Below, piece after piece: positions 1 to 25,985 of a DNA stretch of 32,038 bases. Position numbers and translations under genes: made by a program. The notes beneath the pieces were generated by a model, which saw only the letters and a program-made list of their open reading frames with translations, had not been told where the DNA came from and did not search any database. Within the stretch, counting starts at the first letter, position 1, and each line of letters begins with the position of its first letter. This DNA comes from Candidatus Deferrimicrobium sp. (GTDB lineage: Bacteria; Acidobacteriota; Aminicenantia; UBA2199): positions 1 to 32,038 of the forward strand of contig DATGXF010001204.1 in NCBI GenBank assembly GCA_035299165.1, read 5' to 3'.

Positions 1-3000
1 TATTTACCTATTGACCCGGAGTTTCCACAGGAACGTATCGATTATATGTTGAAAGACAGCGGGGCTAAATTGTTGGCTGTCGCCAACGGTCAAGATAGTG
101 AGAAGTTGGGGAAGTGGGAAGGTGAAAAAATTCTTTTAGAAGATATCTTCAAATCTCCAAAAAGATATTCATACTTTCTTGCTCACTTACCTTCTTATCA
201 TTTAAATTCCTCAAATATCGCCTATATCATCTACACTTCAGGTTCTACGGGAAGGCCCAAAGGTGTTTTGGTAGAGCACCGTTCTGTAGTGAATTTGATT
301 TGTCACCAGGATAAATATTTTAATATAAACCGGTCGGATCGAATATTACAATTTTCCTCTATTTGTTTTGATGCTTCTGTAGAACAAATGTTTATTGCTT
401 TTTCCAGTGGTGCGATTTTGATATTACCCGATAAGAATACTCTGCTGGATTTCAATAAATTTGATAAATTTATAATTCGTCACCGGGTTAGTCATATTCA
501 TGCCGTACCCTCATTTATAAATAATATTCAATTGATTAATTCTTCTCAATTAAAGCGCGTGATTAGCGGTGGTGATGTTTGCCCTGAATCTTTAGCTAAA
601 AAATGGAACATCAGTTTCAATTTTTATAATGAGTATGGACCCACAGAAACGACAGTTACTTCAATTGAAATATTGATAAAAAATGCAAATGCGTTTTTAT
701 TTCGAATACCGATAGGAAAACCAATCAATAATACTGTTGTATATATTCTGGATCAGTGGCTTAATCCTGCACCACTGGGAGTAATTGGCGAATTGTATAT
801 CGGGGGATCCGGAGTCGCTAGAGGATACTTGAATTGTCCGGAATTAACCGCGGAGAAATTTGGAAAGCAGATAACGCAGATAACGCAGATGACGATTATG
901 AAAAACTACAAAACCGGTGATTTGGCACGGTGGATATCCGGTGGCAATATTGAATTCATGGGCAGGATTGATCACCAGGTCAAGATTCGGGGCTATCGCA
1001 TCGAATTGGGAGAAATCGAAAACCGCCTCTTACAAAAACAGGAAATCACGGCTGCCGTGGTAGTGGTAAAAGAAAACAAAAAAACAGAAAAATACCTGTG
1101 TGCTTATATCGTTTCCCATGAAGAAATTCCCCCCACTCAGTTGACCGATCATTTAGCCGCCGCCTTGCCTACCTATATGATACCTGCCTATTTTGTACGT
1201 CTGGAAAAGCTACCTCTTACGGTCCAGGGAAAAATAGACCACAAAACCCTAGAAATGATGCCTGACAGTGAGTCCATCGTCGGAGGCGAATACAGTCCAC
1301 CGGATAGCGATATCGAACACTTACTGGTGAAAATCTGGGAGCAAGTAATGGGACACATGCCTATCGGTGTTAATGACAATTTTTTTACCAGCGGCGGTGA
1401 TTCCATCAAAGCCATACAAATATCGGCACGGATGAACAGGAAAGGATATAAAATAGGAGTAAGAGACATTTTCCAGAATCCCACCATCGCCCGTTTGGCT
1501 CCTTTCATAAAAAAAATAGAGCATATCATAGTCCAAACACCTGTAAGCGGTGCTGTTCCCTTAACCCCAATCCAGGTGGAATTTTTTCAAAACCATAAAA
1601 GCGAACCTCATCATTATAACCAGGCTTTCATGTTTTATTCAAAGGAAAATCTTGATGAGCCAATCATAAAAGCTATATTCTTCAAATTGCAAGAACACCA
1701 TGATGCGTTGCGTATGGTCTATAATTATGAAAAACAAGAAGAAGTCAGCCAGGAGAATCTCGACATCGGCTTAAATCCGGATATCTGGGTATATGATCTA
1801 CGAAAGCGAAAAGATGCAGCAGCAGTGCTAATGAAAGAAGCAAACAAAATCCAGGCCGGCATCAATTTAAAAACCGGGCCATTAATGAAAATAGGACTAT
1901 TTCATTTAGATGATGGGGAGCGATTGTTGATCGTTATTCATCACCTGGTGGTAGACGGCATTTCCTGGCGAATTCTTTTCGAAGATATCGATATATTATA
2001 CCGGCAATGTAAAAAAAGAGAACCGATGATTCTACCGCCCCGAACCGATTCATTTAAAACCTGGGCGGAACGATTAATCCAGTATGCGGGGACCCCATTG
2101 TTTTTAAAAGAAAAAACTTACTGGACCACTTTGGAATCGCAAATAATAACTTCTATACCCAAAGATTTTGCCCAAGAAAACAATTCAAAAAAAGATGAAG
2201 AAAAACTTTCTTTCAACCTGGGAGAAAATGAAACCAATCTTCTGTTAACCCGTGCTCATGAAGCTTTCGGCACAGAAATTAACGATTTGTTGTTGACTGC
2301 CCTGGGTATGGCAATAAAACAAATGTTTGGCGTTGAAAAAATCGCCGTTGCACTTGAAGGACACGGTCGCGAGGAAATTTTCGCTGATGTCGATATAAAA
2401 CGGACAGTCGGTTGGTTCACTATCGTATATCCCATAATACTCGATTTTTCTCACCGCTTTCCGGGGCAAGACTTGGGCCGACAAATAAAGGAAATCAAAG
2501 AACATTTGCATCATGTTCCGAACAAAGGTATCGGTTACGGTATTATAAAATATTTATCAGTTTCTGGTCATAAAAAAGATATTCATTTTACCTTAAAACC
2601 TCAAATTATCTTTAATTACCTGGGGCAATTCGATTCCAATACTCGAGAAATGTCATTCCGCATAGCCGCTGAATCGCCAGGACATATGACCAGCAGCTTC
2701 ACACCCAGGGAATTCGAATTAGATGTAGAGAGTATAATTGCCGAAAAGCGTTTGTTTATGACGATCTTCTACAGCAAAAAACAATATCGAAAAGAAACCA
2801 TTCAAAATTTAATGAATCATTACCGGGAAACTTTAACTCATATTATTACTTATTGCTGCAGCCGGGAAAGGAGTGAATTAACCCCTTCTGATTTTAGTTA
2901 CTCAAGTTTAACTATTGAGCAAGTCGAGCTATTAGAACATAAATATAGCCCCTATTTAATCGAGGATATTTATACCTTATCTCCTCTGCAAGAAGGAATG

Positions 3001-4353
3001 TTGTTCCAATGGATGTATGAACAGAATTCACTTGCCTATTTCCTGCAAACTTCTTATCAGTTGCGTGGTGAATTCGACATAACGCTGCTGAGAGAAAGTT
3101 TCAATCAACTGCTGCAGAGACATCAAGCATTGCGGGCTTTATTCGTACATCAAGGCGTCGAACGTCCTATCCAGGTAATATTAAAAGATAAGGAAATCGA
3201 TTTTCATTATGAAGATATTCACCACTTAAGTGGGATGATTGAAAAAGAGCAATGGCTCGAAGATTACCGGGAAAAAGACCGGCAGCGTTCCTTTGATCTT
3301 ACCCAGGCCGCGCCGATGCGAGTCAGTGTTATCCAATTAGAACGAAATCAATTCGAAATAATCTGGAGCCACCACCATATCCTGATGGATGGATGGTGCC
3401 GGGGAATACTAATAGCAGAGTATCTTGAGATTTTCGCAAGCCTGTTGGAAAAAAGAACTCCCCGTTTACCCCATGTGACCCCTTATCGGGAATATATTCG
3501 CTGGCTGGATAAACAGTCACCAGAACAAGGACGGCAGTATTGGAGTCGGTATTTGCAAGGCAATGAAGAAACCGCATGCATCCCCAAACGATGTACATTA
3601 AAAGAAGATATCCGGGAATACCGCGTAGAGGCTGTTGCATGGAAATCAGGAAAAGAAAAAGAAGCTGGGTTAATGCAATTGGCCGCACGTAACCAGGTCA
3701 CTGTGAGCACAGTAATGCATACCCTATGGGGCATTTTATTGAGCAAATATAACGATAAACAAGATGTGATATTCGGTTCCGTCGTGTCTGGTCGGCCTTC
3801 GGAAATCCAGGGGGTAGAAGCAATGATAGGGTTATTTATTAATACTGTACCATTTCGATTGCGCTTCCATTGCGGCGATAGGTTTGCTGCATTATTAAAA
3901 CAGATGCAAAAACAAACATTGGAAAGTGAAGCCTATCATTATTTACCGCTGACAGAAATCCAGGCCCAGAGCCTCTTAAAACAAAATTTATTCGATCATA
4001 TCCTGGTCTTTGAAAATTACCCGACAGCGTTGAGAATAGAAGGAATTACAGATAAGATAAAACAAGATCAACGGTTTTTGAAACTGAACCTAATGGGAGT
4101 TAAAATCTTCGAACAAACTCATTATAATTTTATTGTCGTCATTTCAAACGAACCTCTGACAATAAAAATTCAATATAATACGGAATTTTATGACAGTGAA
4201 TCGGTAAACAAAATCCTCGGTCATTTAAATTCTATTATAGACCAGGTGTTGGCAGATGAACAAATCGAAATACAAAATATCGCGGTCCAATATGAACTGT
4301 TGGAGGCCGACGTAACTGCCGGCGAGGATGAATATGAAAATTTCGGCTTTTAA
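1..4353 (+). CDS. NRPS subunit 1, 5'-truncated by the window edge; A(partial)-T-E-C(DCL) plus acidic FGF C-terminal tail
   Basis: Frame 1 is open from nt 1. YLPIDPEFPQERIDYML (A2 core motif) precedes the first ATG at 46. Stop TAA 4351-4353. Motifs: YTSGSTGRPKG (A3), FDASVEQ (A4), NEYGPTETT (A5), YKTGD (A7), GRIDHQVKIRGYRIELGEIE (A8), GGDSI (T), HHLVVDGISW and EGHGRE (E), LSPLQEGMLF and HHHILMDGWC (C). Confidence 0.95.
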   Translation, partial: YLPIDPEFPQERIDYMLKDSGAKLLAVANGQDSEKLGKWEGEKILLEDIFKSPKRYSYFLAHLPSYHLNSSNIAYIIYTSGSTGRPKGVLVEHRSVVNLICHQDKYFNINRSDRILQFSSICFDASVEQMFIAFSSGAILILPDKNTLLDFNKFDKFIIRHRVSHIHAVPSFINNIQLINSSQLKRVISGGDVCPESLAKKWNISFNFYNEYGPTETTVTSIEILIKNANAFLFRIPIGKPINNTVVYILDQWLNPAPLGVIGELYIGGSGVARGYLNCPELTAEKFGKQITQITQMTIMKNYKTGDLARWISGGNIEFMGRIDHQVKIRGYRIELGEIENRLLQKQEITAAVVVVKENKKTEKYLCAYIVSHEEIPPTQLTDHLAAALPTYMIPAYFVRLEKLPLTVQGKIDHKTLEMMPDSESIVGGEYSPPDSDIEHLLVKIWEQVMGHMPIGVNDNFFTSGGDSIKAIQISARMNRKGYKIGVRDIFQNPTIARLAPFIKKIEHIIVQTPVSGAVPLTPIQVEFFQNHKSEPHHYNQAFMFYSKENLDEPIIKAIFFKLQEHHDALRMVYNYEKQEEVSQENLDIGLNPDIWVYDLRKRKDAAAVLMKEANKIQAGINLKTGPLMKIGLFHLDDGERLLIVIHHLVVDGISWRILFEDIDILYRQCKKREPMILPPRTDSFKTWAERLIQYAGTPLFLKEKTYWTTLESQIITSIPKDFAQENNSKKDEEKLSFNLGENETNLLLTRAHEAFGTEINDLLLTALGMAIKQMFGVEKIAVALEGHGREEIFADVDIKRTVGWFTIVYPIILDFSHRFPGQDLGRQIKEIKEHLHHVPNKGIGYGIIKYLSVSGHKKDIHFTLKPQIIFNYLGQFDSNTREMSFRIAAESPGHMTSSFTPREFELDVESIIAEKRLFMTIFYSKKQYRKETIQNLMNHYRETLTHIITYCCSRERSELTPSDFSYSSLTIEQVELLEHKYSPYLIEDIYTLSPLQEGMLFQWMYEQNSLAYFLQTSYQLRGEFDITLLRESFNQLLQRHQALRALFVHQGVERPIQVILKDKEIDFHYEDIHHLSGMIEKEQWLEDYREKDRQRSFDLTQAAPMRVSVIQLERNQFEIIWSHHHILMDGWCRGILIAEYLEIFASLLEKRTPRLPHVTPYREYIRWLDKQSPEQGRQYWSRYLQGNEETACIPKRCTLKEDIREYRVEAVAWKSGKEKEAGLMQLAARNQVTVSTVMHTLWGILLSKYNDKQDVIFGSVVSGRPSEIQGVEAMIGLFINTVPFRLRFHCGDRFAALLKQMQKQTLESEAYHYLPLTEIQAQSLLKQNLFDHILVFENYPTALRIEGITDKIKQDQRFLKLNLMGVKIFEQTHYNFIVVISNEPLTIKIQYNTEFYDSESVNKILGHLNSIIDQVLADEQIEIQNIAVQYELLEADVTAGEDEYENFGF
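100..131 (+). repeat. 8-nt-periodic purine array (A2-A3 region of the NRPS-1 A domain)
   Basis: GAGAAGTT|GGGGAAGT|GGGAAGGT|GAAAAAAT. A degenerate pyrimidine-rich counterpart lies at about 174-212. Confidence 0.75.
868..894 (+). repeat. 9-nt tandem repeat x3 in the A6-A7 loop
   Basis: CAGATAACG CAGATAACG CAGATGACG, read as QIT QIT QMT. Confidence 0.9.
1303..1510 (+). other. Thiolation (PCP) domain, E-partner type
   Basis: DNFFTSGGDSIKAIQISARM. Ser codon at 1402-1404. GGDSI is the variant usually found upstream of epimerization domains. Confidence 0.9.
1540..2870 (+). other. Epimerization domain
   Basis: PLTPIQVEFF, HHLVVDGISWRIL (HH codons 1939-1944), ALEGHGREEIF, FNYLGQF. Confidence 0.9.
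2959..4290 (+). other. Condensation domain, DCL type, at the subunit C-terminus
   Basis: IEDIYTLSPLQEGMLFQ, SHHHILMDGWC (3370-3393), GLFINTVPFR. It follows an E domain. No A domain follows in this protein. Confidence 0.9.
4324..4350 (+). other. Acidic FGF-COOH tail (EDEYENFGF*), candidate docking peptide
   Basis: Codons gag gat gaa tat gaa aat ttc ggc ttt then taa. The same tail type ends NRPS-2 and the radical SAM protein. Confidence 0.7.
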
Positions 4354-4376: not shown

Positions 4377-5106
4377 ATGGATAAAGACATTAGCCGCGAA
4401 ACGAAAATTATCAGCAGTCAAAGAATAAAAGAAAAAACATATTGGTTGGAGCAACTTTCCGGCAGCCCTGAGAAAACCGGTTTTCCATATGATCAAAGAA
4501 GCCCAGGTACAAAGGAATATATTGCTGAAACGCTGGAATTCAGCTTTTCTTCGAACCAAGCCGCTGCACTTTTGAAACTTTGCAATAACTCCGATATACG
4601 TTTATTCATTATCCTGGCTGCAGGCTTAACATTATTATTAAAAAAATATACCGGCAGCAGTGATATTATCCTGGCCGCCCCGATTTACAAACAGCAAATA
4701 AAAGGGGATTACATCAACACCATACTCCTATTGAAGAACTCTGTCCCCCCCAGGATAACTTTTAAAGAACTGTTGATTCACACGGCCCGCGTCATTAAAG
4801 AAGCTGATGAAAATAAAAATTACCCTATTGAAATCCTGATGGAACAGTTAAATATTCCTTTCTATGAAAATGAATGTTCATTATTCGATACGGCCTTACT
4901 GTTGGAAAATATCCATGATAGACAATATCTCAGTCCCATCAAACCGGCTGTGATCTTTTCCTTCGCGAGGGTAGGGACAGACGTTGGGGGAATCATCGCA
5001 TATAATTCGCGGTTGTATAAACAGACAACCATCGAAAATATCGCCGCTCATATGAAAAACCTATTTCAACAGTTTTTGAATCACCCGGATATAACGGAAA
5101 ATGACA
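4377..5106 (+). other. N-terminal half condensation domain (C-terminal lobe only, no HHxxxDG)
   Basis: aa 1 to ~243 align to the second half of the in-window LCL domains. Matches: KTYWLEQLSG ~ ETYWVKEFAG; IRLFIILAAGLTLLLKKYTGSSDIILAAPI ~ TVYTVLLSLYYILLAKLASQEDIVIGIPV; YINTILL ~ FVNTLAL; NKNYPIEILMEQL ~ NQDYPIEDLIEKV. A normal C-A linker (LSEVEKRQLLIVFNDT) follows. No His motif lies upstream. Confidence 0.8.
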
Positions 5107-8100
5107 TCGATATATTATCTGAAGTCGAGAAAAGACAATTGCTAATCGTTTTTAACGACACTGCGGCGCAATATCCGGATAAAGGGATTAGTGATTTATT
5201 TGCCGGTCAGGTCGAAAAAACTCCCCATTATACGGCCCTTATATATGAAAATGCGAGCTTGACATACAGGGCATTGGATAGCAGGGCCAACCTCATGGCT
5301 GCATATTTTAAAAGCAAAGGAATTACTGTCGATAACATAGTTGCTGTGCTGCTGGAGCGATCATTAGAGATGATAACCTCTATATTAGCAATATTAAAAT
5401 CCGCTGGGGCTTACATGCCTATCGATCCCGAATATCCCCGGGAAAGAATTGATTATATGCTAAAAGACAGTGGAGCTAAACTGCTGGTTACCGTTGGCAA
5501 TCAAGAAATTGAGAAGCTGAGAAGGTGGGAAGGTGAGAAAAATTTTGAAATTGTTTTTTTTAATTCGTTTTTTTACTCTTCTTTATCAACTTCTGATCTT
5601 CCTAACTTCCTAACTTCCCATACTTTCAATCTCGCCTACGTCATCTATACCTCCGGTACTACAGGGAAACCCAAAGGTTCCCTGATTACTCATAAGAATG
5701 TGGTTCGCCTTTTATTTAACGATAGGTCCCGGTTTGATTTTAATCACCGGGATATATGGGCCATGTTTCACTCCTATTGTTTTGATTTTTCCGTTTGGGA
5801 AATGTATGGCGCGCTGTTTTATGGGGGCAAATTGGTTGTAGTACCCAGGATAGTGACCCGGGATCCTGCGCAATACCTTGAACTTCTTAAAAATAGGGGA
5901 GTTACAATTCTAAATCAAACTCCGACTGCCTTTTATAACCTGATAGAAGAAGAGTTGAAGCATCTTGATCACTCATTGAACTTGAAGTATATAATCTTTG
6001 GCGGAGAGGCCCTGAATCCTTTTCGATTGGCAAAATGGCACAAAAAATACCCGACCACTAAATTGATTAACATGTTCGGTATCACTGAAACCACCGTACA
6101 TGTGACTTATAAAGAAATCAGTGACCGCGAAATTGGGTTAGGTGTTAGTAATATTGGTTCTCCCATCCCAACCCTGAGTACTTATATCATGGATAGTTAT
6201 TTATCTCTCATGCCCATCGGGGCAGTCGGCGAATTATGCGTCGCTGGGGATGGAATCGCCAGGGGATATTTGAATCGACCGGAAATGACCGCGGAAAAAT
6301 TCATTGAAAATCCTTATAAATCTGGCGAAAAAATGTATCGCTCCGGTGATCTGGCCCGGTTATTAAATAATGGTGAAATGGAATATATCGGGCGACTCGA
6401 TCAACAGATCAAAATCAGGGGGTTCCGAGTGGAACTTGGAGAGATCCAAAACCGGCTGCTCCAACATGATAGTGTAAAAGAAGCAATCGTCACAATACGA
6501 GAAGATGAGGATGGAGAAAAATCCCTTTATGCCTATATCGTGTTCCATCAACCTTTTGAAATATCCAAATTGAGAGCTTTCCTGGCTATCACACTGCCCG
6601 ATTATATGATCCCCGGTTATTTCATTCCGCTTGAGCGAATCCCCTTAACCGCCAATGGTAAAGTGGATATTAAAGCCCTGCCCCACGCTGTGGCTAGAGG
6701 TTCGGTTTACCTTTCCCCCCGGAACACAATCGAAGAAACACTGGCCGCTATATGGGTTCATGAATTAAACCTTGAACGGGTCGGTATCGATGAAAATTAT
6801 TTTAATATCGGCGGTGATTCCATAAAAGCTATTCGCTTATTAAACACCGTTAACCAGTCATTTAACACCGATCTGAAAATCGTAGATATATTTACCCATG
6901 AAACCATTGAAAAATTAGCCCAACGCATCACACGGGAGAAGCCGGGACAATCTACAGACAGCCAGAGTCAAGAGGTTAAAAAAGAAATAGAGGTATTGAA
7001 AACCCGGGCAATGGAAAAACTTCCGCTTCTTTTAGCAGAAGATATCGAAGATATTTATCCCATGAGCGATATCGAAAAAGGTATGATATATTATACTTTA
7101 AAAGATCCCGGGGATGGGGCTTATCATGACCAGATAGTTTACCAGGTACCTTACCGTGATTTTAATCCATTAACTTTTACGCGCGCCCTCCAATTAATGA
7201 CGGAAAAGCATCCTATCTTAAGAACTTCTTTTCAGATGGAAAATTATGAAGAACCGCTTCAATTGGTCCATAAATCGGTATGCATAGACATGGAGCACCA
7301 GGACATATCCTCTATGGACCCGGCTCTGCAAGAAGATTTTTTAATAAATTATTTAATAGCAGACAGGAAAAAGGGATTTGTGGTAAGTGAAGCCCCGTTA
7401 TGGAGAATAAGAACTTTTCAGATTGATTCAAAACAAATTTGCATCTTACTGGTAACGCATCATGCAATATTGGACGGCTGGAGTGTAGCCGCTTTTTCCA
7501 CTGAATTAAACAATATTTACCGGCATTTAAAAAATAATCCCCATCTTACCTTACACAAATTGCACAGTACATACAAAGATTTTATCATAGATCAATTGGT
7601 GGAAATGAGAACGAACCGGGTCCAGGATTACTGGAAAGATCAACTGGACGGATATCAGCGGATGGATTTTATCAAGAAAAACCGCGGTGATACTTTCACC
7701 AGTGCGCGTATGTATTCCTTTGAGCCGGAGCAAGGCCTGGCGGTGAAACTGGAAAATTGCGCGTGGCAATACGGTTCCACGGTAAAGCATTTATGCCTGG
7801 CCGCATATATATATATGTTGAATATGTTTTCATATGAAAATGATATCACCGCAGGTATTGTGGTCATGGGGAGACCGGTGTGCGAGGATGGTGACAAAAT
7901 ATTAGGTTGCTTTTTAAATACAATCCCTTTTCGGTTAAAAATACCCGACCATTTTACATGGGCAGACTATATCCGGGAGGTGGAACGAAAACAAACCGAA
8001 CAAGCCAATTACAGTAGGACATCGTTGTTTGAAATATCGCGAATAATTGGAGAAACCCCACAAAGTAACAATCCAATCTTCGATACCATATATAATTTTA

Positions 8101-23100: not shown

Positions 23101-25985
23101 TGTTGATTGTCGCCAACGACCAGGAAGGTGAGAAGGTGAAAAGCTGGGAAGGGGAGAAAGTGCTTTTAGAAGAAATCTCTAAACTCCCAAAAAGTTCTAC
23201 TTGCTCTCGTACTCTTTTAGCCTCTGACCTTCTGAGCCCTCGAAATATTGCCTATATCATTTACACTTCAGGTTCCACCGGGCGGCCCAAAGGCGTAATG
23301 GTAGAACATCGTAATGTGGTGCGATTGTTTTTTCACGAGGGATGTTTTTTTGAATTTACCGGGCGGGATATATGGACCATGTTTCATTCTCCATGTTTCG
23401 ATTTTTCTGTATGGGAAATGTATGGAGCGTTATTATTCGGCGGCAAGGTGATTGTGGTTTCCAAAATGATGGCCCGGCAACCGGCCAGGTACCTGGAATT
23501 ACTAAAATCAAAGGGGGTGACCGTATTGAACCAGACTCCCAGTGCTTTTTATGCCCTTGAAGCCATGGAATTGCAAAGCAGCGATAAAAAATTGCATTTA
23601 AGGTACGTGATTTTCGGCGGCGAGGTACTGCACCCGATTAAATTGGAGAAGTGGCGGGAAAGATACCCGGAAACGCGGTTAATCAATATGTTCGGCATTA
23701 CGGAAACCACGGTGCATGTTACTTACCGGGAGTTAAGTGCAGGGGACATCCGGCAGGATGTCCGTCATATCGGCCGTCCCATCCCCACCTTGAGCACTTA
23801 TGTGGTTAATAGATATCAACAATTAATGCCTGTCGGAATTGTGGGAGAGTTATGCGTCGGTGGAGGCGGGGTGGCCAGGGGATACCTGAACAGGGTAGAA
23901 TTAACCGCCGAACGTTTTGTTGAAAATTCTTTTGAACCGGGAGGGCGTCTGTACCGGTCCGGTGACCTGGCAAAAATAACCGATGGCAGCGATATGGAAT
24001 ACCTGGGCCGCAGCGATCAACAGGTACAGGTCAGGGGATTCCGCGTGGAACTGGGAGAAATTGAAAACCAACTGCTCCGGCATCCCCTGGTTAAAGAAGC
24101 ATATGTGATGGATCGTGAGGACAGTACCGGTGAGATTTATCTATGCGCTTATATCGCGGTGGACAAAGAAAAGGGGCTGGATACGGCCGAGCTGCGGCAA
24201 CACCTACACTCCAGGCTGCCGGAATACATGGTTCCTTCTTTTTTTGTAAGATTAGAAACGTTACCGGTTACTGCCAACGGTAAAGTGGATCGGCGGACAT
24301 TACCGGCCCCGGCTCCGGGAGAATCAAAGAAAAATTTTACTGCTCCACGGGATGAAATAGAGAAAAAATTAGCTGAAATATGGGCAACCGTATTAGGGCT
24401 GGATAAAAACACAATCGGCATTGACAATGACTTTTTCGAATTGGGCGGACATTCGTTAAAAGCAGGAATATTGGCAGCTTTGATACATAAAGAAATGGAT
24501 GTAAAAATACCTTTGCCGGAAATTTTTATTAATTCCCACATCAGGGACATGGCAGAATATACCCGGATGGCTGCCAAAGAGAAATATCTCTCGATAGAAC
24601 CTGCCAAAAAAAAGGATTATTATGCATTATCTTCGGCACAAAGACGATTATACATTATGCAGCATGTGGATCCTTCGATTACAGCTTATAATATAACCCA
24701 GATGTACGTGATCAAGGGACGGCTGCATATAGAAAAGTTGGTAGCTGCGTTCAGGCAGTTAATTCAACGGCATGAAAGCTTAAGAACTTCATTTATGCTT
24801 TTTGCTGGGGAACCTGTCCAAAAAATCCATGAAAACGTGGAATTCGAAATAAAATGCCATGACGATAATACTGGGGGGCGTACTATCATGGATAATTTTA
24901 TTATGCCCTTTGATTTGCATCATGCGCCGCTATTAAGAGTTGGACTGATAAAAGTGAAAGAGGAAGAGCACATTTTAATGATCGATATGCATCATATCAT
25001 TACTGATGGCGTCTCTACCAATATCCTGGTTCGTGATTTTGCGGCATGCTATGAGAACAACCCCTTACCTGGATTAAAATTGCAGTACAAGGATTTTTCC
25101 GAATGGCAGAACAGCGAGTTTGTAAAAAAAGACATGGCCAGGCAAAAAACGTACTGGGTGAATCGTTTTAGCGGCACGATCCCCCGCCTGAATTTGGACA
25201 CTGACTATGAACGGTCGGAAACTAAATCTTTTGCCGGAGAAAGTATTCATTTTGTCATCGATAAAGAACTATGTCATCAAGTGATAACGTTAACGCAAGA
25301 GACAGAAACATCAATATTTATGTTTTTATTGGCGGTTTACAATGTCTTGCTTTACCATTACAGCAAGCAGGAGGATATCCTGGTAGGAAGTCCCATCATT
25401 GGCAGGCGACATGCGGATTTACAGCATATCGTCGGTATGTTTGTCAATATGCTTGTATACCGAAATTATCCAGCCGGTCAGAAAACGTTTAGGGGCTTTT
25501 TGGAAGAAGTAAAACAAAATGCGCTGCAAGCCTATGAAAACCAGGATTACCAGTTCGAACAATTGATCGTGGATTTGAATTTACAAGGAACCGTGGGCCG
25601 TAATCCACTATTTGATGTTGTATTTTCAATGCAAAGAATAGACCTGGATATGGAAGAAAATGTACATATGAATAAGGCACACGGGGATTCTAAAGGGATC
25701 TCCCCTTTGCAAATTACCCCCTATCCGTTTAAAAGACAAACTACCCCATTTGAATTAATAATGTCAGCCTATGAAACGGATGATGCCATTATGATGAGCC
25801 TGGACTATGCGGCGCGACTTTTTAAACACTCCACGGCAGAAAAAATAATTCGCCATTACCAGGAAGTAATCAATCAAGTGGTGGCAAATATGGACATCGA
25901 ATTGCAAAATATTCGACTCTCACACCAATTCAAACCATTAATGGATGTAAATATTTTAGAGGATCAAGATGATTTTGGATTTTAA
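4377..25985 (+). CDS. NRPS subunit 2, 7,202 aa, six modules: halfC-A-T-C / A-T-C / A-T-C / A-T-E-C / A-T-C / A-T-C, ending in an acidic FGF tail
   Basis: Uninterrupted ORF with six sets of A core motifs, six GG(H/D)S(L/I) carrier motifs, six HHxxxDG condensation motifs and one E domain (EGHGRE). Stop TAA 25983-25985. Confidence 0.97.
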   Translation: MDKDISRETKIISSQRIKEKTYWLEQLSGSPEKTGFPYDQRSPGTKEYIAETLEFSFSSNQAAALLKLCNNSDIRLFIILAAGLTLLLKKYTGSSDIILAAPIYKQQIKGDYINTILLLKNSVPPRITFKELLIHTARVIKEADENKNYPIEILMEQLNIPFYENECSLFDTALLLENIHDRQYLSPIKPAVIFSFARVGTDVGGIIAYNSRLYKQTTIENIAAHMKNLFQQFLNHPDITENDIDILSEVEKRQLLIVFNDTAAQYPDKGISDLFAGQVEKTPHYTALIYENASLTYRALDSRANLMAAYFKSKGITVDNIVAVLLERSLEMITSILAILKSAGAYMPIDPEYPRERIDYMLKDSGAKLLVTVGNQEIEKLRRWEGEKNFEIVFFNSFFYSSLSTSDLPNFLTSHTFNLAYVIYTSGTTGKPKGSLITHKNVVRLLFNDRSRFDFNHRDIWAMFHSYCFDFSVWEMYGALFYGGKLVVVPRIVTRDPAQYLELLKNRGVTILNQTPTAFYNLIEEELKHLDHSLNLKYIIFGGEALNPFRLAKWHKKYPTTKLINMFGITETTVHVTYKEISDREIGLGVSNIGSPIPTLSTYIMDSYLSLMPIGAVGELCVAGDGIARGYLNRPEMTAEKFIENPYKSGEKMYRSGDLARLLNNGEMEYIGRLDQQIKIRGFRVELGEIQNRLLQHDSVKEAIVTIREDEDGEKSLYAYIVFHQPFEISKLRAFLAITLPDYMIPGYFIPLERIPLTANGKVDIKALPHAVARGSVYLSPRNTIEETLAAIWVHELNLERVGIDENYFNIGGDSIKAIRLLNTVNQSFNTDLKIVDIFTHETIEKLAQRITREKPGQSTDSQSQEVKKEIEVLKTRAMEKLPLLLAEDIEDIYPMSDIEKGMIYYTLKDPGDGAYHDQIVYQVPYRDFNPLTFTRALQLMTEKHPILRTSFQMENYEEPLQLVHKSVCIDMEHQDISSMDPALQEDFLINYLIADRKKGFVVSEAPLWRIRTFQIDSKQICILLVTHHAILDGWSVAAFSTELNNIYRHLKNNPHLTLHKLHSTYKDFIIDQLVEMRTNRVQDYWKDQLDGYQRMDFIKKNRGDTFTSARMYSFEPEQGLAVKLENCAWQYGSTVKHLCLAAYIYMLNMFSYENDITAGIVVMGRPVCEDGDKILGCFLNTIPFRLKIPDHFTWADYIREVERKQTEQANYSRTSLFEISRIIGETPQSNNPIFDTIYNFIDFHIYESVEYDEKTDAGAVNRNRQRLSISGYVKTNTLLDFHVDFTLGRFVVTINYTNSTFTGDEIKTLAYYFEQVLKTIITRPIEVISKDEIISPGEREKLLYKFNQTEADYPNSTTLQELFHKQVERTPYRVSLLGGENNTRRKQQITYNVLNEISGRLAHVLRTKGVKEDRVVGIMVERSIEFITGVFGILKAGGAYLPMDPVHPAARNRYMLQDSRAELLLTTKKTAAKIAFDRQMIYIDDLNITPGFFPDPVESSATGAGSIAYIIYTSGSTGKPKGVLIEHKAIVNRLHWMQQRYPIDGGDTLLQKTPFTFDVSVWEIFWWSLVGGRLCMLVPGGEKDPGVIIEVVQKNRVTVIHFVPSMLAVLLDFLSESGDAYKLSCLKQVITSGEALTLAHVSHFNAVLGQRYNIKLANFYGPTEATVDVTFFDCPLGEAMDIVPIGKPIDNIFLYILDKHGQLQPPGASGELCITGTGLARGYINNPGLTNEKFKTVQQWNGLNKNFSGGPGGRFFKKAPLALYKTGDLARWLPDGNIEFLGRIDRQIKIRGNRIELGEIENRLLEYPQVKEAAVEANLCAYFVPQVGADISISQLREYLQQHLPGYMVPLHYVRLEAMPLTPSGKIDRKSLPAPEIITDQSYLDPQDEIEKKLTGIWAEVLNITKPISSIANFFESGGHSLNAVALISRIHKAFDVKITLESLFKNPTIQKIAAHLKAAQPDKFLVIPAVEKKEFYPLSSAQERLYFLQQMIGAETVYNIPLVMLLHGPIDRAALERAFNRLIQRHESFRTSFHVVSGEIVQKVHDNVKFEIEILADKGQQEELNALVRPFELSKAPLLRVGLIKKTTEEYILALDMHHIIVDGVSFTVLVRDFMQLYEKNELPPMRVQYKDFVQWMRMDLQEEMIRRQETYWVKEFAGDVPVLSLPTDYLRPAIQNFEGSSLGFVIDAEIAGLLEKYALEQETTVYTVLLSLYYILLAKLASQEDIVIGIPVAGRNHADLENIIGMFVNTLALRNYPNGNKSVKRFLAEVKENLLAGLGNQDYPIEDLIEKVYTSRDTSRNPLFSTVFVMQNVDMANRPKVENPGLRISPYNYENKTAKFDLTLRIVETGKRIACEFEYCTRLFVQSTVKHFVDYFINAANALRQGIDISIADLDILPETEKQRLLYDFNETAAEYPRDKTIHGLFTEQVEQTPDLIAVVGSTVETPLQITYRQLNEQSNRLAYVLQTRGIELDTIVGIMMERSIEMVAGMIGILKSGSAYLPIDPEYPGERIKYMLKDSGVKLLVMTNHKESEKIGQWEGEKNLEIVFFDSLSFSSSLLTSYLPNFPTSHSFNLAYVIYTSGTTGQPKGSLIEHRNVVRLLFNDKFQFDFTDYDVWTLFHSLCFDFSVWEMYGALLYGGKLVIVPKMVAMDTIGFLELLNREAVTVLNQTPSAFYNLINEALSPYREGKKLYIKYVIFGGEALNTLKLRDWLAKYPQTSLINMFGITETTVHVTYKELNQKDVELSISNVGKPIPTLKVYILDKYLKQVPVGGEGEIYVGGDGVARGYLNRPELTSNKFINIHHSSFDIPRIHDPKLYRTGDLARYLSNGDMEYLGRIDQQVKIRGFRIELGEIENRLTKIAGIKEAVVIDREDEPGDKYLCAYIVSKKAVIVTEIREYLTGNLPDYMIPSHFLQIDKIPITANGKIDRKALPKPGLKLSDSYIAPQSALEKQLARLWADVLGIEDNIGSDDNFFELGGHSLRATVLIARMHKEFHVKVPLVEIFRIPRLKELAVYIKGKKKEIYNAIEPCEAKEYYALSPAQKRLYILQQLVPGNTGYNMPNVIPLAGYVEKEKLESVFKELIKRHESLRTCFIKVNDEPVQRINKEVEFSIACMKSQAPGRPDFVGTFDLSQAPLLRVKLLTVDATSQMLLIDMHHIITDGVSQGILEKEFMMLYAGETLPTLRLQYKDYSEWQNSRQQKLLIKEQETYWLELFAGDIPVLNLAIDYPRPIMQSFEGANVRFVLTANESRVLKEAAVQTGATLYMSILSVFTILLSRLSGQEDIIVGAAIAARRHADLEKIIGMFVNTLAMRNNPVREKSYREFLLDLKEQTLKAYENQEYPFEELVDNITVSRDTGRNPVFDAMFNLLNIQDYNDRIINTGTEEYQSTHQEGNAKFDLTLIGVDLGERFLFDIEYCTRLFKPETIDRFISYFKKLLDSISQDIDKKLCALDIITEEERNRVLYEWNDTRVDYPKDKTIHQLFEEQVDVTPDHIAVIGSWEREKENSGVENLSVASLHITYLQLNEQSNRLAYGLQTKRVGPDTIVAIMAERSVEMIIEILGILKAGGAYLPIDPEYPQERIDYMLKDSGAKLMKRRHARACAEEFLASSLPRFLASASSNLAYIIYTSGSTGKPKGVMVEHHSVINLIQTRAYRFKTGTPGRLLLATSICFDASVEQIFAALFFGNVCVVAAKETLLGKELLNGFLKQHAVTYLTVVPSILALISEDNNTLKGITVGGEPCPVSLARQWSKRCIFYNEYGPTETTVTVLEKKIIADEENTWCLPLGKPIPNIRIFILDAALKIVPMMVNGELFIEGAGVTRGYLNNPELTRGSFTNILRKCAEKTSIWDIVFKEERPQGRAKELGAPPHFEKTPTGMDPVKRLFNYHSPLTARHSPFVTHQSPIYKTGDLARWLPDGNIEFLGRIDQQVKIRGFRIELGEIENCLAKIVGIKEAVVIDREDETGDKYLCAYIVFTKEYEITELHRYLAKELPAHMVPAYFVPVEKIPQTTNGKIDRKSLPEPKTMSLKENIAHTVPTTAVEKKLVKIWQRVLGRDNIGIDENFFMIGGDSIKSIQIISRMNSEGYRLEMKDIFQHPVISELAPLVKKLERVPDQNAITGTILLTPIQQVFFSKDYTVPHHFNQSVMFYSRERFDADALKEVFAKIQEHHDALRMTYRFDVDDEDKENKKIIQTNHSLDYPLCFDEYDLKNQPNSLEELNIKVNQIQAGIDLEKGPLMKLGLFHLDSGDRLLVVIHHLVIDGISWRILFQDIETLYNQYRQGKTFALPHKTDSFKLWSEKLYLYANGQPFLKEKDYWGQLEANIVPGIPQDFEEKENNADDTANIRSLSFRLEEEETNLLLTRVNHAFGTEINDILLTALGLGMKKTFGQDKVLLALEGHGREEILAETGIDISRTVGWFTSIYPVSMDMSYSGDLGRQIKEIKEKLRRIPNKGVGYGILKYLTDEKNKKEIEFKLKPQISFNYLGQFDADVKQMSSFEMAKESPGNPISTKNKREYEFDINGMISYNRLVIGVSYNHTHFKAETMASLTGNLQSELRRIISYCSVQEKREFTPSDFTYKSLSIDYLNRLMQLYTDVEDIYPLTPMQEGMLFHALVDEKSHSYFEQMSYRLEGKLDIHLTEKSLNELFKRHEILRTAFIYEEVERPLQVVLSKRAIDFYYEDIRSIDDKKEKEFFVAEFKEKDKRRSFVLSKSALMRVSILQLADSEYEFIWSFHHILMDGWCIGILNSEFFEIYSSYLGNRPYRLPDLKPYRTYIQWLEKQNKEASLSYWENYLDSYEEQVSMPRTNIIKNEPGKLGEINRRVSFLLDRDKTVGLNKLAAVNNVTLNVVTQVLWGIILGKYNGKEDVVFGAVVSGRTSELDGIESMVGLFINTIPVRIQFNEHMNFNYLLQKIQQEALTGEPYHYNPLAEIQSISSLKQNLLDHIFIFENYPIAERIEGYGKEENKSGKSLSVRLLDVEIFEQTNYDFNVLLGGSDQLSIIFQYNANVYERSFVERIGQHFSLAVDQVIKNGGLEIKKLNLLTEEEKSLLLYRFNNTAVEYPKDKSIHLLFQEQAEQIPDSIALIGPLLSIEENGLTSLNTNAANMLIQQSYNELNKQSIRLAHMLQTKGVGPDTIVAIMMERSVEMIIGILGILAAGGAYLPIDPEYPQARIDYMLKDSGAKLMIGRGEERKSRRAERNFIYISFSSNHASSNLDSSLPRFHNSDSSNSAYVIYTSGSTGKPKGVMVGHRNIMNFNQGIISNIPFSPGKAILALTTISFDIFVLETFLPLLNGLKVVIANEEQQKDPSLLGETIVKHCLDMLQVTPSTLHMLISHNGELHCLQGLKELMVGGEAFPDHLFTRVKEAFKGNIYNMYGPTETTVWSALKNLTLEETVNIGTPIANTQIFIVDRCNRLLPIGASGELCIGGDGVARGYLNRPELTSEKFCRHLWVERPRRGLQHSKLYRTGDLARCLLDGNIQFLGRIDQQVKVRGFRIELGEIESRLLECEGIKEAVVVIKEGDGADKYICAYIVSHPGNVLSDMKLREELAAKLPYYMIPSYIIQLERIPLTPNGKIDRNALPAPAMGEGEAGTAPRNDMEKKLAGIWSEVLGMAKEKPGIDHNFFQIGGHSLKAVIMISRIHKVFNVIISLVDFFQRPTIRQLSEYIKKAESDRFFSIEPAEKKEYYPLSSSQKRLLFLQQLEEFNVAYNMTAVLEWHGVLNREGVESTFQRLIARHESFRTSFHTHNGQAVQQIHPQVKFEIEYNHEADIDTGTKNFIKPFDLGQAPLLKVRLSEISPGRHLLMVDMHHIISDGVSVQLAMRDFMRLYGGEDLPPLGFQYKDYSQWQNEPQQKEILKKQRGYWSEEFAGDVPVLSLPLDYPRPLLQSFDGETVHFELNTEETRGLRATAKKIQGTLYMVLLALYTVFLAKMTGQEDIVVGTPVAGRRHKDLEEIIGNFVNTLALRNRLEGGMTFKDLLDKVKVNLLQAFENQEHPYEDLIEEVGVKRDTSRNPLFDAALALHNVDMPGEISWASSGNIKIKPVSIPGKTSKFDLTLQVIEGQEKIDLEFEYCNKLFMPSTIRRFVEYFKGILKEVLPEPAIRLREISIISPQEKQQLLAAFNHTQSQYPEYQTIDRLFGEQAVRTPDAISVAYNDNTITYRELECRAGQVTDYLGNKCGLKAGELAAILANRSENTIIGMLGILKAGGAYLPIDPDYPQERIDYILQDSGAKLLIVANDQEGEKVKSWEGEKVLLEEISKLPKSSTCSRTLLASDLLSPRNIAYIIYTSGSTGRPKGVMVEHRNVVRLFFHEGCFFEFTGRDIWTMFHSPCFDFSVWEMYGALLFGGKVIVVSKMMARQPARYLELLKSKGVTVLNQTPSAFYALEAMELQSSDKKLHLRYVIFGGEVLHPIKLEKWRERYPETRLINMFGITETTVHVTYRELSAGDIRQDVRHIGRPIPTLSTYVVNRYQQLMPVGIVGELCVGGGGVARGYLNRVELTAERFVENSFEPGGRLYRSGDLAKITDGSDMEYLGRSDQQVQVRGFRVELGEIENQLLRHPLVKEAYVMDREDSTGEIYLCAYIAVDKEKGLDTAELRQHLHSRLPEYMVPSFFVRLETLPVTANGKVDRRTLPAPAPGESKKNFTAPRDEIEKKLAEIWATVLGLDKNTIGIDNDFFELGGHSLKAGILAALIHKEMDVKIPLPEIFINSHIRDMAEYTRMAAKEKYLSIEPAKKKDYYALSSAQRRLYIMQHVDPSITAYNITQMYVIKGRLHIEKLVAAFRQLIQRHESLRTSFMLFAGEPVQKIHENVEFEIKCHDDNTGGRTIMDNFIMPFDLHHAPLLRVGLIKVKEEEHILMIDMHHIITDGVSTNILVRDFAACYENNPLPGLKLQYKDFSEWQNSEFVKKDMARQKTYWVNRFSGTIPRLNLDTDYERSETKSFAGESIHFVIDKELCHQVITLTQETETSIFMFLLAVYNVLLYHYSKQEDILVGSPIIGRRHADLQHIVGMFVNMLVYRNYPAGQKTFRGFLEEVKQNALQAYENQDYQFEQLIVDLNLQGTVGRNPLFDVVFSMQRIDLDMEENVHMNKAHGDSKGISPLQITPYPFKRQTTPFELIMSAYETDDAIMMSLDYAARLFKHSTAEKIIRHYQEVINQVVANMDIELQNIRLSHQFKPLMDVNILEDQDDFGF
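5511..5542 (+). repeat. 8-nt-periodic purine array, module 1
   Basis: GAGAAGCT|GAGAAGGT|GGGAAGGT|GAGAAAAA, read as EKLRRWEGEK. Confidence 0.85.
5598..5621 (+). repeat. 8-nt tandem pyrimidine array, inverted counterpart of 5511-5542
   Basis: CTTCCTAA|CTTCCTAA|CTTCCCAT. The reverse complement contains GGGAAGTT and AGGAAGTT. Read as LPNFLTSH. Confidence 0.85.
6715..6930 (+). other. T domain, module 1 (GGDSI variant although no E domain follows)
   Basis: ENYFNIGGDSIKAIRLL. Ser codon 6819-6821. Confidence 0.9.
7041..8350 (+). other. Condensation-family domain, atypical subtype
   Basis: IEDIYPMSDIEKGMIYY (in place of LSxAQxRLY or LTPMQEGMLF), THHAILDGWS (HH 7458-7463), GCFLNTIPFR. It has no Cy DxxxxD motif, no second N-terminal HH motif and no EGHGRE. 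Confidence 0.8.
8440..9995 (+). other. A domain, module 2, predicted Ser-like
   Basis: YTSGSTGKPKG, FTFDVSVWEIFW, HFVPSML, ITSGEAL, NFYGPTEATVDV, YKTGD, KIRGNRIELGEIE, PSGKIDRKSL. Code DVWHISFVDK against Ser DVWHLSLIDK. It lacks the octamer arrays seen in other modules. Confidence 0.8.
9630..9663. repeat. GC-rich palindrome (10-bp perfect stem) inside the coding sequence, A6-A7 loop of module 2
   Basis: CCAGGGGGGC-GGTTTTTTAAAAAA-GCCCCCCTGG. The loop T6/A6 is itself self-complementary. Read in frame as GPGGRFFKKAPLA. Confidence 0.9.
10030..10250 (+). other. T domain, module 2
   Basis: NFFESGGHSLNAVAL. Ser codon 10140-10142. Confidence 0.9.
10300..11570 (+). other. Condensation domain, LCL type
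   Basis: FYPLSSAQERLYFLQ, RHESFRTSF, MHHIIVDGVS (HH 10674-10679), GMFVNTLALR. Confidence 0.9.
11985..12016 (+). repeat. 8-nt-periodic purine array, module 3
   Basis: GAGAAAAT|CGGGCAGT|GGGAAGGT|GAGAAAAA. Confidence 0.8.
12075..12098 (+). repeat. 8-nt tandem pyrimidine array, module 3
   Basis: CTTCCTAA|CTTCCCAA|CTTCCCAT, read as LPNFPTSH. Confidence 0.85.
12792..12819 (+). repeat. 7-nt tandem array in the A6-A7 loop of module 3
   Basis: ATTCATC|ATTCATC|ATTCGAT|ATTCCAC. Confidence 0.85.
12901..13045 (+). repeat. Dispersed direct repeat copy A (A8 to post-A8 region of module 3)
   Basis: 145 nt aligned by hand to 16171-16315 with 12 mismatches and no gaps (about 92 percent identity). Confidence 0.9.
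13220..13440 (+). other. T domain, module 3
   Basis: DNFFELGGHSLRATVL. Ser codon 13329-13331. Confidence 0.9.
13490..14750 (+). other. Condensation domain, LCL type
   Basis: YYALSPAQKRLYILQ, RHESLRTCF, MHHIITDGVS (HH 13857-13862), GMFVNTLAMR. Confidence 0.9.
15186..15203. repeat. Alternating pyrimidine-purine tract (YR)9, contains the 10-bp palindrome CACGCGCGTG
   Basis: CACGCGCGTGCGTGCGCG, a GC island in AT-rich coding sequence. Read as HARACA. Confidence 0.9.
15211..15242 (+). repeat. 8-nt tandem array x4, module 4
   Basis: TCCTCGCT|TCCTCGCT|TCCTCGCT|TTCTCGCT, read as the SSLPRFLAS portion of FLASSLPRFLASASS. Confidence 0.9.
16055..16103 (+). repeat. 7-nt-periodic array at the end of the module 4 insertion
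   Basis: CCACTCA|CCTCTCA|CTGCGCG|CCACTCA|CCGTTCG|TCACTCA|CCAATCA, read as HSPLTARHSPFVTHQS. Confidence 0.8.
16171..16315 (+). repeat. Dispersed direct repeat copy B (A8 to post-A8 region of module 4)
   Basis: See 12901-13045. Confidence 0.9.
16500..16720 (+). other. T domain, module 4, E-partner type
   Basis: ENFFMIGGDSIKSIQI. Ser codon 16605-16607. Confidence 0.9.
16745..18090 (+). other. Epimerization domain
   Basis: LLTPIQQVFF, IHHLVIDGISWRIL (HH 17160-17165), ALEGHGREEIL, FNYLGQF. Confidence 0.9.
18180..19500 (+). other. Condensation domain, DCL type
   Basis: VEDIYPLTPMQEGMLFH, SFHHILMDGWC (HH 18597-18602), GLFINTIPVR. It follows an E domain. Confidence 0.9.
19956..19995 (+). repeat. 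8-nt-periodic purine array, module 5
   Basis: GGAAGGGG|AGAAGAAC|GGAAGAGC|AGAAGAGC|GGAAAGAA. Confidence 0.8.
20046..20077 (+). repeat. 8-nt-periodic pyrimidine array, module 5
   Basis: TCCTCGCT|TCCTCGCT|TCCATAAT|TCCGATTC. It shares the TCCTCGCT unit with module 4. Confidence 0.8.
20761..20775. repeat. GC-rich hairpin in the A6-A7 loop of module 5
   Basis: GCCCCC-GCC-GGGGGC, read as RPRRG. Confidence 0.8.
21185..21400 (+). other. T domain, module 5
   Basis: HNFFQIGGHSLKAVIM. Ser codon 21291-21293. Confidence 0.9.
21455..22720 (+). other. Condensation domain, LCL type
   Basis: YYPLSSSQKRLLFLQ, RHESFRTSF, MHHIISDGVS (HH 21825-21830), GNFVNTLALR. Confidence 0.9.
22790..24310 (+). other. A domain, module 6, predicted Thr
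   Basis: YTSGSTGRPKG, CFDFSVWEMYGAL, NQTPSAF, IFGGEVL, NMFGITETTVHVTY, YRSGD, QVRGFRVELGEIE, ANGKVDRRTL. Code DFWNIGMVHK (Thr). Confidence 0.85.
23122..23161 (+). repeat. 8-nt-periodic purine array, module 6
   Basis: AGGAAGGT|GAGAAGGT|GAAAAGCT|GGGAAGGG|GAGAAAGT. A degenerate pyrimidine-rich counterpart lies at about 23195-23245. Confidence 0.8.
24345..24560 (+). other. T domain, module 6
   Basis: NDFFELGGHSLKAGIL. Ser codon 24453-24455. Confidence 0.9.
24615..25930 (+). other. Condensation domain, LCL type, at the subunit C-terminus
   Basis: YYALSSAQRRLYIMQ, RHESLRTSF, MHHIITDGVS (HH 24990-24995), GMFVNMLVYR. No A domain follows in this protein. Confidence 0.9.
25956..25982 (+). other. Acidic FGF-COOH tail (LEDQDDFGF*), candidate docking peptide
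   Basis: Codons tta gag gat caa gat gat ttt gga ttt then taa. It replaces the usual C-A linker after the terminal C domain. Confidence 0.7.
25959..25963 (+). promoter_or_regulatory. Shine-Dalgarno-like site for the radical SAM gene, embedded in the tail codons of NRPS-2
   Basis: GAGGA lies 5 nt upstream of ATG 25969. The start codon sits inside the gat gat of the DDFGF tail, giving a 17-nt overlap. Confidence 0.6.

Follow-up and report, generated by a model that had tools for sequence, protein, structure and literature searches.

The stretch of DNA analysed here, referred to as the window, comprises 32,038 nucleotides of contig DATGXF010001204.1 from Candidatus Deferrimicrobium sp. (assembly GCA_035299165.1) and carries four co-directional genes: three code for subunits of non-ribosomal peptide synthetases (NRPS-1, NRPS-2 and NRPS-3) and one, lying between the second and the third, for a radical S-adenosylmethionine (rSAM) enzyme. 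The subject of this report is the way in which these subunits are divided at the boundary between condensation (C) and adenylation (A) domains, the upstream proteins ending in a short Phe-x-Phe (FxF) tail and the downstream subunits starting with a half condensation domain, the half-C. NRPS-1 is cut off by the left edge of the window and ends at position 4353, its visible portion consisting of a partial A domain followed by thiolation (T), epimerization (E) and C domains; since its reading frame is open from base 1, the ATG at position 46 is not its start. NRPS-2 (4377-25985, 7202 amino acids) shows the motif order half-C-A-T-C-A-T-C-A-T-C-A-T-E-C-A-T-C-A-T-C, and NRPS-3, which starts at 27734 and is cut off by the right edge, the order half-C-A-T-C-A. 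The spacing of the genes is tight, with gaps of 23 nt and 28 nt and one overlap of 17 nt.

According to the original prediction, NRPS-2 and NRPS-3 both begin with the C-terminal lobe (C-lobe) of a condensation domain and nothing else of it. The Pfam profile PF00668 agrees, aligning residues 12-256 of NRPS-2 to profile positions 187-456 of 456 (E 1.9e-40) and residues 19-259 of NRPS-3 to positions 193-455 (E 9.7e-27). In both proteins this region, of about 260 amino acids, is followed by a normal C-A linker and then by the A domain. The N-terminal lobe (N-lobe) and its HHxxxDG motif are missing as had been claimed, no HHxxxDG being present before residue 1028 in NRPS-2 or residue 992 in NRPS-3, and the sequence motifs announced for the segment were also found (YWLEQL/YWLNQL, YINT/FINT, NYP and LFD, then the linker DIDILSExEKxxLLxxFNxT). 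Thus, the half-C lacks the two-lobed build of a catalytic condensation domain and has the C-lobe fold with motifs C5 ((F/Y)INT, with an invariant N114), C6 and C7 retained.

The start codons of both genes are well defined. The ATG of NRPS-2 lies 23 nt past the NRPS-1 stop; a Shine-Dalgarno sequence (AAGGA) precedes it by 8 nt, and its frame is closed upstream by a TGA at 4335. The ATG of NRPS-3 comes straight after an in-frame TAA and has AAGGAG upstream. True starts situated far upstream, against which the prediction had to hold, are ruled out by these in-frame stops and Shine-Dalgarno sites, and for the same reason no hidden N-lobe can be encoded. An assembly or annotation artefact, that is, a frameshift or a pseudogenised junction within one continuous synthetase, is effectively refuted: the N-lobe is not encoded, the stop, Shine-Dalgarno and start signals are clean, and the architecture is repeated in 49 loci, isolate genomes included.

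At the other end of the proteins, NRPS-1 and NRPS-2 were found to finish, as predicted, in a complete C domain (HHILMDG and HHIITDG, respectively), from which a short acidic stretch leads to the final FGF (Table 1). This ending occurs three times in the window, in NRPS-1, NRPS-2 and the rSAM protein. The claim that each junction brings together a full C domain in trans and a half-C is therefore correct for the domain content, but NRPS-2 and NRPS-3 are not adjacent, the tailed rSAM gene standing between them. In NRPS-1 and NRPS-2, the terminal C domains also retain the first part of the C-A linker (I-x-I-x-N-I-x-[LV]; compare 4273-4350 and 25929-25982 with 5085-5162); in place of the LLxxFNxT part of the linker stands the acidic DFGF tail, displaced downstream by some six residues. 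It may be speculated that the tail evolved from the FNxT (WNATE-type) motif of the linker, or that it mimics that motif, with the spacing being off by about six residues and the linker in cis being intact.

Table 1. Features of the window on which the argument is based, with their positions and the evidence for each
Feature	Position (nt)	Strand	Evidence
Complete condensation domain at the NRPS-1 terminus, DCL-type HHILMDGW, after an E domain	2962..4272	+	PF00668 profile 2-441/456
NRPS-1 acidic linker and C-terminal tail, 26 aa, ending EDEYENFGF	4273..4350 (motif 4324-4350; stop 4351-4353)	+	Translation; tail logo
NRPS-2 N-terminal half-C (C-lobe only) and C-A linker	4377..5162 (Pfam match nt 4410-5144)	+	Pfam 187-456/456; AlphaFold2; Foldseek; clade by own profile
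A domain and T domain of the NRPS-2 module fused to the half-C	5202..6929 (A 5202-6272; T 6738-6929)	+	Pfam AMP-binding aa 276-632, PP-binding aa 788-851
Complete condensation domain at the NRPS-2 terminus, HHIITDG	24612..25928	+	Pfam profile 2-449/456
NRPS-2 linker and tail, 18 aa, ending EDQDDFGF	25929..25982 (stop 25983-25985)	+	Translation
B12-binding radical-SAM enzyme, 578 aa, ending EEEGDFGF	25969..27705 (tail 27679-27702)	+	Pfam Radical_SAM and weak B12-binding
NRPS-3 N-terminal half-C and C-A linker	27734..28531 (Pfam match nt 27788-28510)	+	Pfam 193-455/456; identity comparison
A domain of the first NRPS-3 module, beside the rSAM gene	28571..29611	+	Pfam AMP-binding aa 280-626

The half-C was predicted to be catalytically dead, and its sequence speaks for this: it has neither N-lobe nor HHxxxDG, the GR motif of ordinary C-lobes is changed to KQ, and a putative latch is shortened. 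In complete domains, the Asp of HHxxxDG has the Arg of this GR motif as its partner. When the profile of the half-C family is aligned to TycC (residues 265-520, PDB 2JGP), TycC shows about 14 additional residues before the KFDL-type strand, and the segment preceding the C5 motif is some 5-6 residues shorter in half-Cs than in ordinary C-lobes; the shortened stretch before the KFDL strand is interpreted as the latch that would normally cross to the N-lobe. Such changes would represent an adaptation to existence without an N-lobe. Identity between the half-Cs of NRPS-2 and NRPS-3 is 46%, versus only 22-28% between them and the C-lobes that belong to full C domains in the window. Moreover, several residues are conserved among half-Cs and absent from ordinary C-lobes (E19, F36, S72-D73, K105-Q106, K130, N148, E177 and H180), suggesting that the half-C does more than pack against the A domain.

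Structure prediction leads to the same anatomy. The AlphaFold2 model of residues 1-262 of NRPS-2 is confident (predicted local distance difference test, pLDDT, 87; predicted template modelling score, pTM, 0.87), and Foldseek matches it to solved C domains with TM-scores of about 0.8 when normalised by the query (0.76-0.83 for the C-lobes of Txo1, DhbF, TomB and TycC) and of about 0.45 when normalised by the target, as expected if the model is half a C domain. The X domain of glycopeptide synthetases is among these matches. For the half-C together with the A core, the confidence of the model is lower (pLDDT 73, pTM 0.60); superposition on the C-A didomain of Txo1 over about 685 columns gives a query-normalised TM-score of 0.62, versus 0.46 for targets consisting of an A domain only. 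The model is consistent with a roughly canonical arrangement of half-C and A domain, which lends weak support to the earlier suggestion that the half-C may keep the native interface between C-lobe and A core.

In order to place the window in a wider context, loci with this architecture were collected by a pattern scan of one genome per species, which yielded 46 loci (numbered L004-L049), and three more were obtained via protein matches, making 49 loci from about 27 genomes and seven phyla. These cover Aminicenantes and other Acidobacteriota, Clostridia and other Bacillota, Bacteroidota, Desulfobacterota, Actinomycetota, Cyanobacteria and Omnitrophota, and include isolates of Bacillota (Paenibacillus profundus, P. 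lutrae, Paludifilum halophilum and Lysinibacillus) as well as the cyanobacteria Fischerella PCC 9431 and Nostoc. When the half-C served as query in word-indexed searches for homologues, only 3 and 7 short proteins were obtained. With a hidden Markov model built from the half-C itself, the scores are 149-441 bits for N-terminal half-Cs and no more than 129 for internal C-lobes, and all 67 matches of at least 140 bits fall within roughly the first 300 residues of their open reading frames (ORFs), with 70 N-terminal matches when weaker ones are included. Judged by this profile, the half-C is a clade of its own and a conserved type of N-terminal domain.

The tail was defined as an ORF ending in [FW]-x-[FW]-COOH, and 60 unique ORFs across the loci carry it, with the consensus [DE][DE][DE]-G-D-F-[G/D/N]-F. 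Its presence is strongly associated with a next gene that starts with a half-C (two-by-two table 42/16/19/257, Fisher p = 1.7e-25). Of the 16 tail genes without a half-C directly next to them, 13 precede another tail gene (one with the relaxed ending NFQF) and one an aminotransferase gene, followed by the half-C gene; the remaining two lie before a lower-scoring half-C and at a contig end. Seen from the other side, the 67 evaluable half-C genes have a strict tail directly upstream in 42 cases, a relaxed one (DFDI, EFGL, or DFEF plus one to three residues) in 13, a tail reached via a single tail-less gene in 7 and none in 5, so that 62 of the 67 have a tail-bearing gene upstream, directly or across one tail-less gene. 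The correlation of half-C starts with upstream partners ending in C plus FxF, on which the prediction had been made to depend beforehand, is thus very strong. Furthermore, within the loci no FxF tail was found upstream of subunits starting with a full C domain (22 ORFs, about 17 of them on the coding strand), upstream of ORFs starting directly with an A domain (6 cases) or on subunits ending in a T domain.

Among the related loci there are runs of single-module half-C-A-T-C-tail proteins, and stand-alone C-tail proteins directly before half-C genes, and one locus (L009) shows a half-C-A-T-TE protein with a genuine thioesterase (TE) end. In Fischerella sp. PCC 9431 (L043:3885-17529), a C-ending subunit with the motif two residues from its end (TFNFCD) is followed by an aminotransferase, a half-C-A-T protein and a subunit starting with a TubC_N domain, and the arrangement in Nostoc (L042) is equivalent. 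In two further loci (L039:14120-19265 and L040:11867-17012), stand-alone C domains ending in LIDDFNQPLE precede A-starting subunits without a half-C; this is a second, different kind of split between C and A.

These layouts bear on the idea that NRPS-1, NRPS-2 and NRPS-3 are independent synthetases, with half-Cs heading starter modules and terminal C domains releasing the chain by amidation or cyclisation, with no docking at all. Chain-releasing terminal C domains do exist in other systems. In NRPS-1, however, the terminal C domain comes after an E domain and bears HHILMDGW, the DCL-type motif of an elongation domain, and the serial half-C-A-T-C-tail and stand-alone C-tail proteins before half-C genes, the true TE ends elsewhere (L009) and the tight coupling of the genes in the window (gaps of 23 nt and 28 nt, overlap of 17 nt) all speak against independence as well. 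Independence is considered very improbable, despite the occurrence in other systems of starter modules headed by an isolated C-lobe, termed C* (PMC7253712, PMC7884236).

The tail is not restricted to synthetase subunits, and the rSAM gene of the window is the nearest example. Its ATG lies within the codons for the DFGF tail of NRPS-2, and by this 17-nt overlap the gene is predicted to be translationally coupled to NRPS-2. The protein has the CxxxCxxC radical-SAM core (Pfam Radical_SAM, E 5e-14) and an N-terminal B12-binding match, clear in its relatives but faint in the protein encoded here (E 0.0018, below the cutoff). The nearest NCBIfam models are those of B12-dependent rSAM methyltransferases, all matched far below their cutoffs (the best, TIGR03975, with 96.9 bits versus 281.85), and the enzyme is probably a C-methyltransferase. 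Its family is large and unnamed, with 1498 matches at E ≤ 1e-10. Among the closest cluster representatives (the best 120 of the 1498 matches), 104 end in [FW]x[FW]; of the other 16, 12 have the motif at most three residues from the end and three of the last four show GDFGF before a short extension. P0160 is one relative with an internal GDFGF and a short extension after it, and a CDGSH-type zinc-finger match (PF09360) occurs in some relatives (P0160, P0162, P0165, P0205 and P0207). The specificity codes of A domains in rSAM-associated modules were compared and proved heterogeneous, and because of this diversity no substrate can be assigned to the enzyme.

Altogether, the carriers of the tail comprise C-ending NRPS subunits, stand-alone C domains (472-505 aa) and B12-rSAM proteins (about 560-610 aa), and also a MiaB/RimO-like rSAM protein, Peptidase_U32-like proteins, a WbuX-like protein and WbuX-rSAM fusions. 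Beside half-C genes, tailed enzymes of these last groups (MiaB/RimO-like rSAM, Peptidase_U32-like, WbuX-like and WbuX-B12-rSAM fusion) are found at L004:5404-6729, L005:89-1270, L015:8742-9944, L007:6855-8060 and L039:5648-8494. The U32 family includes oxygen-independent hydroxylases, and together the tailed enzymes look like an oxygen-independent tailoring toolkit for the synthetases of anaerobes. Class-III aminotransferases in equivalent gene positions have no tail, which fits enzymes acting on free substrates. With the same tail on the rSAM protein and on other tailoring enzymes, the reading shifts from a dock for two partners to a hub for many clients. The original proposal of a half-C serving as landing platform for the upstream subunit, for its FGF tail, or for both would thus hold as far as the gene association goes, but the circle of clients is wider than it foresaw, since several families of tailoring enzymes are tailed as well.

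In some half-C-headed modules (L007:9974-16774, L039:8510-14065 and L025:9992-17656), the A domain contains a large insertion with a B12-binding and/or a radical-SAM domain; that of L025 has the B12-binding match only, plus a ThiF domain, and that of L007 a weak methyltransferase-like match. Each would be an A domain interrupted by an rSAM enzyme. A Rosetta-stone argument from these domains inserted in cis was considered and set aside as weak, the insertions being only 23-27% identical to the rSAM family acting in trans.

Where the tails of a C-ending NRPS and of an enzyme converge on one half-C, their middle residue is identical in 9 of 17 junctions (permutation p = 5e-5), and such agreement between non-homologous proteins points to a common receptor. 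It also weighs on the possibility that the tail is a generic tag of cluster components, serving a scaffold, a compartment, a chaperone or proteolytic control, with the neighbourhood pattern reflecting nothing but operon layout. Tails are indeed nearly identical across clients and junctions, with FGF found thrice in the window, and several of them can precede one half-C, as a generic tag would allow. Subunits ending in T and those preceding full-C starts are untagged, though they belong to the same assembly lines, tail genes stand upstream of half-Cs either directly or across only tail-bearing genes or an aminotransferase, and converging tails agree more than expected. Moreover, no further conserved scaffold gene was seen, no systematic search having been made for one. 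A generic tag is accordingly regarded as improbable, though not to the extent of independent synthetases.

The reading that is held to be probable takes the half-C as the receptor and the FxF tail as the ligand of a docking pair, or hub, at the C/A boundary. The receptor would be a dead relative of the condensation domain, reduced to its C-lobe and still joined to an A domain by a normal C-A linker, and the ligand a short, flexible, acidic tail ending in G-D-F-x-F-COOH, borne by proteins that need the carrier protein of the half-C module in trans. At the junction between subunits, the last C domain of the upstream protein would act as catalyst, with the donor T domain in cis and the acceptor T domain in trans. 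Stand-alone C domains and tailoring enzymes would dock through the same tail, the tailoring client in the window being the B12-binding rSAM enzyme encoded between NRPS-2 and NRPS-3. As to the presumable order of events, the A domain would load the T domain, the tail-docked enzymes would modify the cargo, and the tail-docked upstream C domain would then condense onto it. A split at C/A rather than at T/C may let several clients time-share one aminoacyl- or peptidyl-S-T in this way, and the T domain of the half-C module of NRPS-2 is presumed to be the shared target of the partners. A bolder version, in which the half-C and D-F-x-F would form a portable, module-addressed recruitment code and the residues round F-x-F would tune the choice of junction, is offered tentatively, with rather more doubt than belief. 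On this version, whatever enzyme bears the tail, be it a catalytic C domain or an anaerobic tailoring enzyme of the B12-rSAM, MiaB-like, U32-like or WbuX-like kind, would be brought to the carrier protein of a module headed by a half-C.

Several observations weigh against docking on the half-C. No significant covariation was found between the middle residue of the tail and the columns of the half-C, the best z being 3.8 over 262 columns. Up to three tails occur per half-C (L007), so that the ratio is not 1:1 and binding would have to be competitive or to involve several sites. A few members of the half-C clade (e.g. L010 and L044) stand beside no gene with a tail, and in such contexts a purely structural role, as proposed for C* and ADA domains, may suffice. 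In addition, the association in gene order does not separate the half-C from its fused A-T as the receptor, and the counts are not fully independent, since the loci are mostly metagenome-assembled genomes, several of them from the same bins. The best hint in the covariation analysis is column 71 of the half-C (N70 in NRPS-2, beside the clade-specific S72-D73 loop), which is Lys in 8 of 18 half-Cs with an acidic middle residue in the partner tail versus 2 of 33 others, a match of charges that is not significant after multiple testing.

These points are most favourable to the view that the half-C is only a structural chaperone of its A domain, in the manner of C* in ACV synthetase or of ADA in Lys2-type reductases, and that the tail binds elsewhere on the acceptor module, for instance at the surface of the A core used by MbtH-like proteins (an aromatic clamp) or at the T domain. 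Isolated C-lobes preceding A domains have been described, with adenylation depending on them (PMC7884236), in NCBIfam the NRPS-2 half-C aligns with the N-terminal part of Lys2 (TIGR03443 positions 2-222), the canonical C-A linker is kept and the modelled didomain is roughly canonical; the half-C genes without a tail partner and the covariation that was not found can be added to these. A chaperone of this kind explains neither why the subunits starting with an A domain (6 cases) are not preceded by an FxF tail, nor the conserved residues that set the clade apart from ordinary C-lobes, nor the limitation of the tail association to that clade. It is considered unlikely, albeit the most serious competitor of the docking reading.

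Docking at the half-C would explain why the synthetases are cut at C/A, why enzyme genes are inserted exactly there and why a dead C-lobe is conserved as a clade. The two problems addressed are how NRPS subunits find each other and how free tailoring enzymes are aimed at one module among many; if true, a docking pair at C/A common to C domains and tailoring enzymes would be a natural and apparently modular solution to both. The recruitment code, if it exists, would constitute a new class of NRPS docking at C/A and a general way for enzymes acting in trans to find one module, and for engineers a native split site would become available together with a short tag addressing enzymes to a chosen module. 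A function would also be assigned to the widely seen and unexplained 'truncated C' domains. The system looks widespread. Among the top 150 representatives of giant NRPSs, ranked by summed C-domain scores (a ranking that yields no family size), 12 start with a half-C and 28 have an FxF-like end. Finally, attention is drawn to a large uncharacterised family of NRPS-associated B12-rSAM proteins and to oxygen-independent enzymes in uncultivated anaerobes such as Aminicenantes.

As regards the modules of the window themselves, the specificity code of the A domain fused to the half-C of NRPS-2 is DFWNIGMVH, Thr-like in our own reading, and that of the first A domain of NRPS-3 is DGTSTAEVM, which was matched to no substrate. 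The first full C domain of NRPS-2 (about 6990-8400, aa about 875-1340) is atypical, with HHAILDGWS and the N-terminal YPMSDIEKGMIYY, and has the most divergent C-lobe within the window. It is preceded by the Thr-like module (DFWNIGMVH), whose T domain has the signature GGDSI, usual in T domains that precede E domains. This C domain might be a specialised subtype, e.g. a dehydrating or dual-function one.

In the full-text literature searched, which leaves out most subscription journals, no description of the pairing of tail and half-C was found. The parts are known separately, and what is new within that literature is their combination: a C-lobe receptor on elongation subunits, a D-F-x-F tail, a C/A junction and sharing by several protein families. 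The closest anatomical relatives are the isolated C-lobe C* of module 1 of ACV synthetase and the ADA of fungal alpha-aminoadipate reductases (Kalb et al. 2015, as cited in PMC7884236), and a C* has also been annotated in the starter module of ThdA (PMC7253712). Like the half-C of the window, which aligns to the N-terminus of Lys2, these are C-lobes without N-lobe or HHxxxDG, joined directly N-terminal to an A domain. They belong to initiation modules or stand-alone reductases, however, whereas the half-C heads elongation subunits that come after C-ending subunits. Neither a C-domain partner in trans nor a peptide ligand is known for them, and they are described as structural or elusive in role, in contrast to the co-occurrence of half-Cs with FxF-tailed partners. 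Moreover, the C* of ACV synthetase lacks motifs C1-C5, whereas the half-C keeps C5, C6 and C7.

With respect to function, the X domain of teicoplanin synthetase (X-OxyB, PDB 4TX3) is similar in being a dead member of the C family that acts as a platform and recruits tailoring enzymes in trans to a carrier-bound substrate, which for the half-C is proposed from gene association. It differs in having both lobes and an internal position in the last module, between the last T domain and the TE, whereas the half-C is half as long and strictly N-terminal; it also binds folded P450s by a surface interface, not a terminal peptide, and has no role in transfer between subunits. Interface (I) domains reportedly partner with beta-hydroxylases acting in trans in siderophore NRPSs (Reitz et al. 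2019), and are likewise C-family domains devoted to the recruitment of tailoring enzymes. They are full-length and C-like, with no known terminal-tail ligand and no role in subunit docking.

Among true docking systems, COM domains and the PCP-like adaptor of TomB (PMC11186497) have in common with the docking proposed here the recognition between separate NRPS subunits. They operate at E/C or T/C boundaries, where the carrier protein of the donor is recognised by helical or PCP-like elements, and tailoring enzymes do not share them, whereas the junction in the window is C/A and the N-terminus of the acceptor is a half-C followed by an A domain. In the beta-hairpin system (TubC_N, PF18563), as in the docking proposed here, a C-terminal short linear motif of the upstream protein is bound by an N-terminal receptor domain of the downstream one. 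Its receptor is an alpha-beta-beta-alpha-alpha domain of about 50 aa that stands before a full C, Cy or KS domain at T/C boundaries, and no PF18563 match was obtained in NRPS-2 or NRPS-3 at E ≤ 0.01 with a model that does detect TubC_N in the Fischerella locus. The arrangement described here is thus distinct from both COM and beta-hairpin docking, as the original prediction had held, and in Fischerella the two types are used separately within the same assembly line, TubC_N at T/C and the FxF tail with the half-C at C/A.

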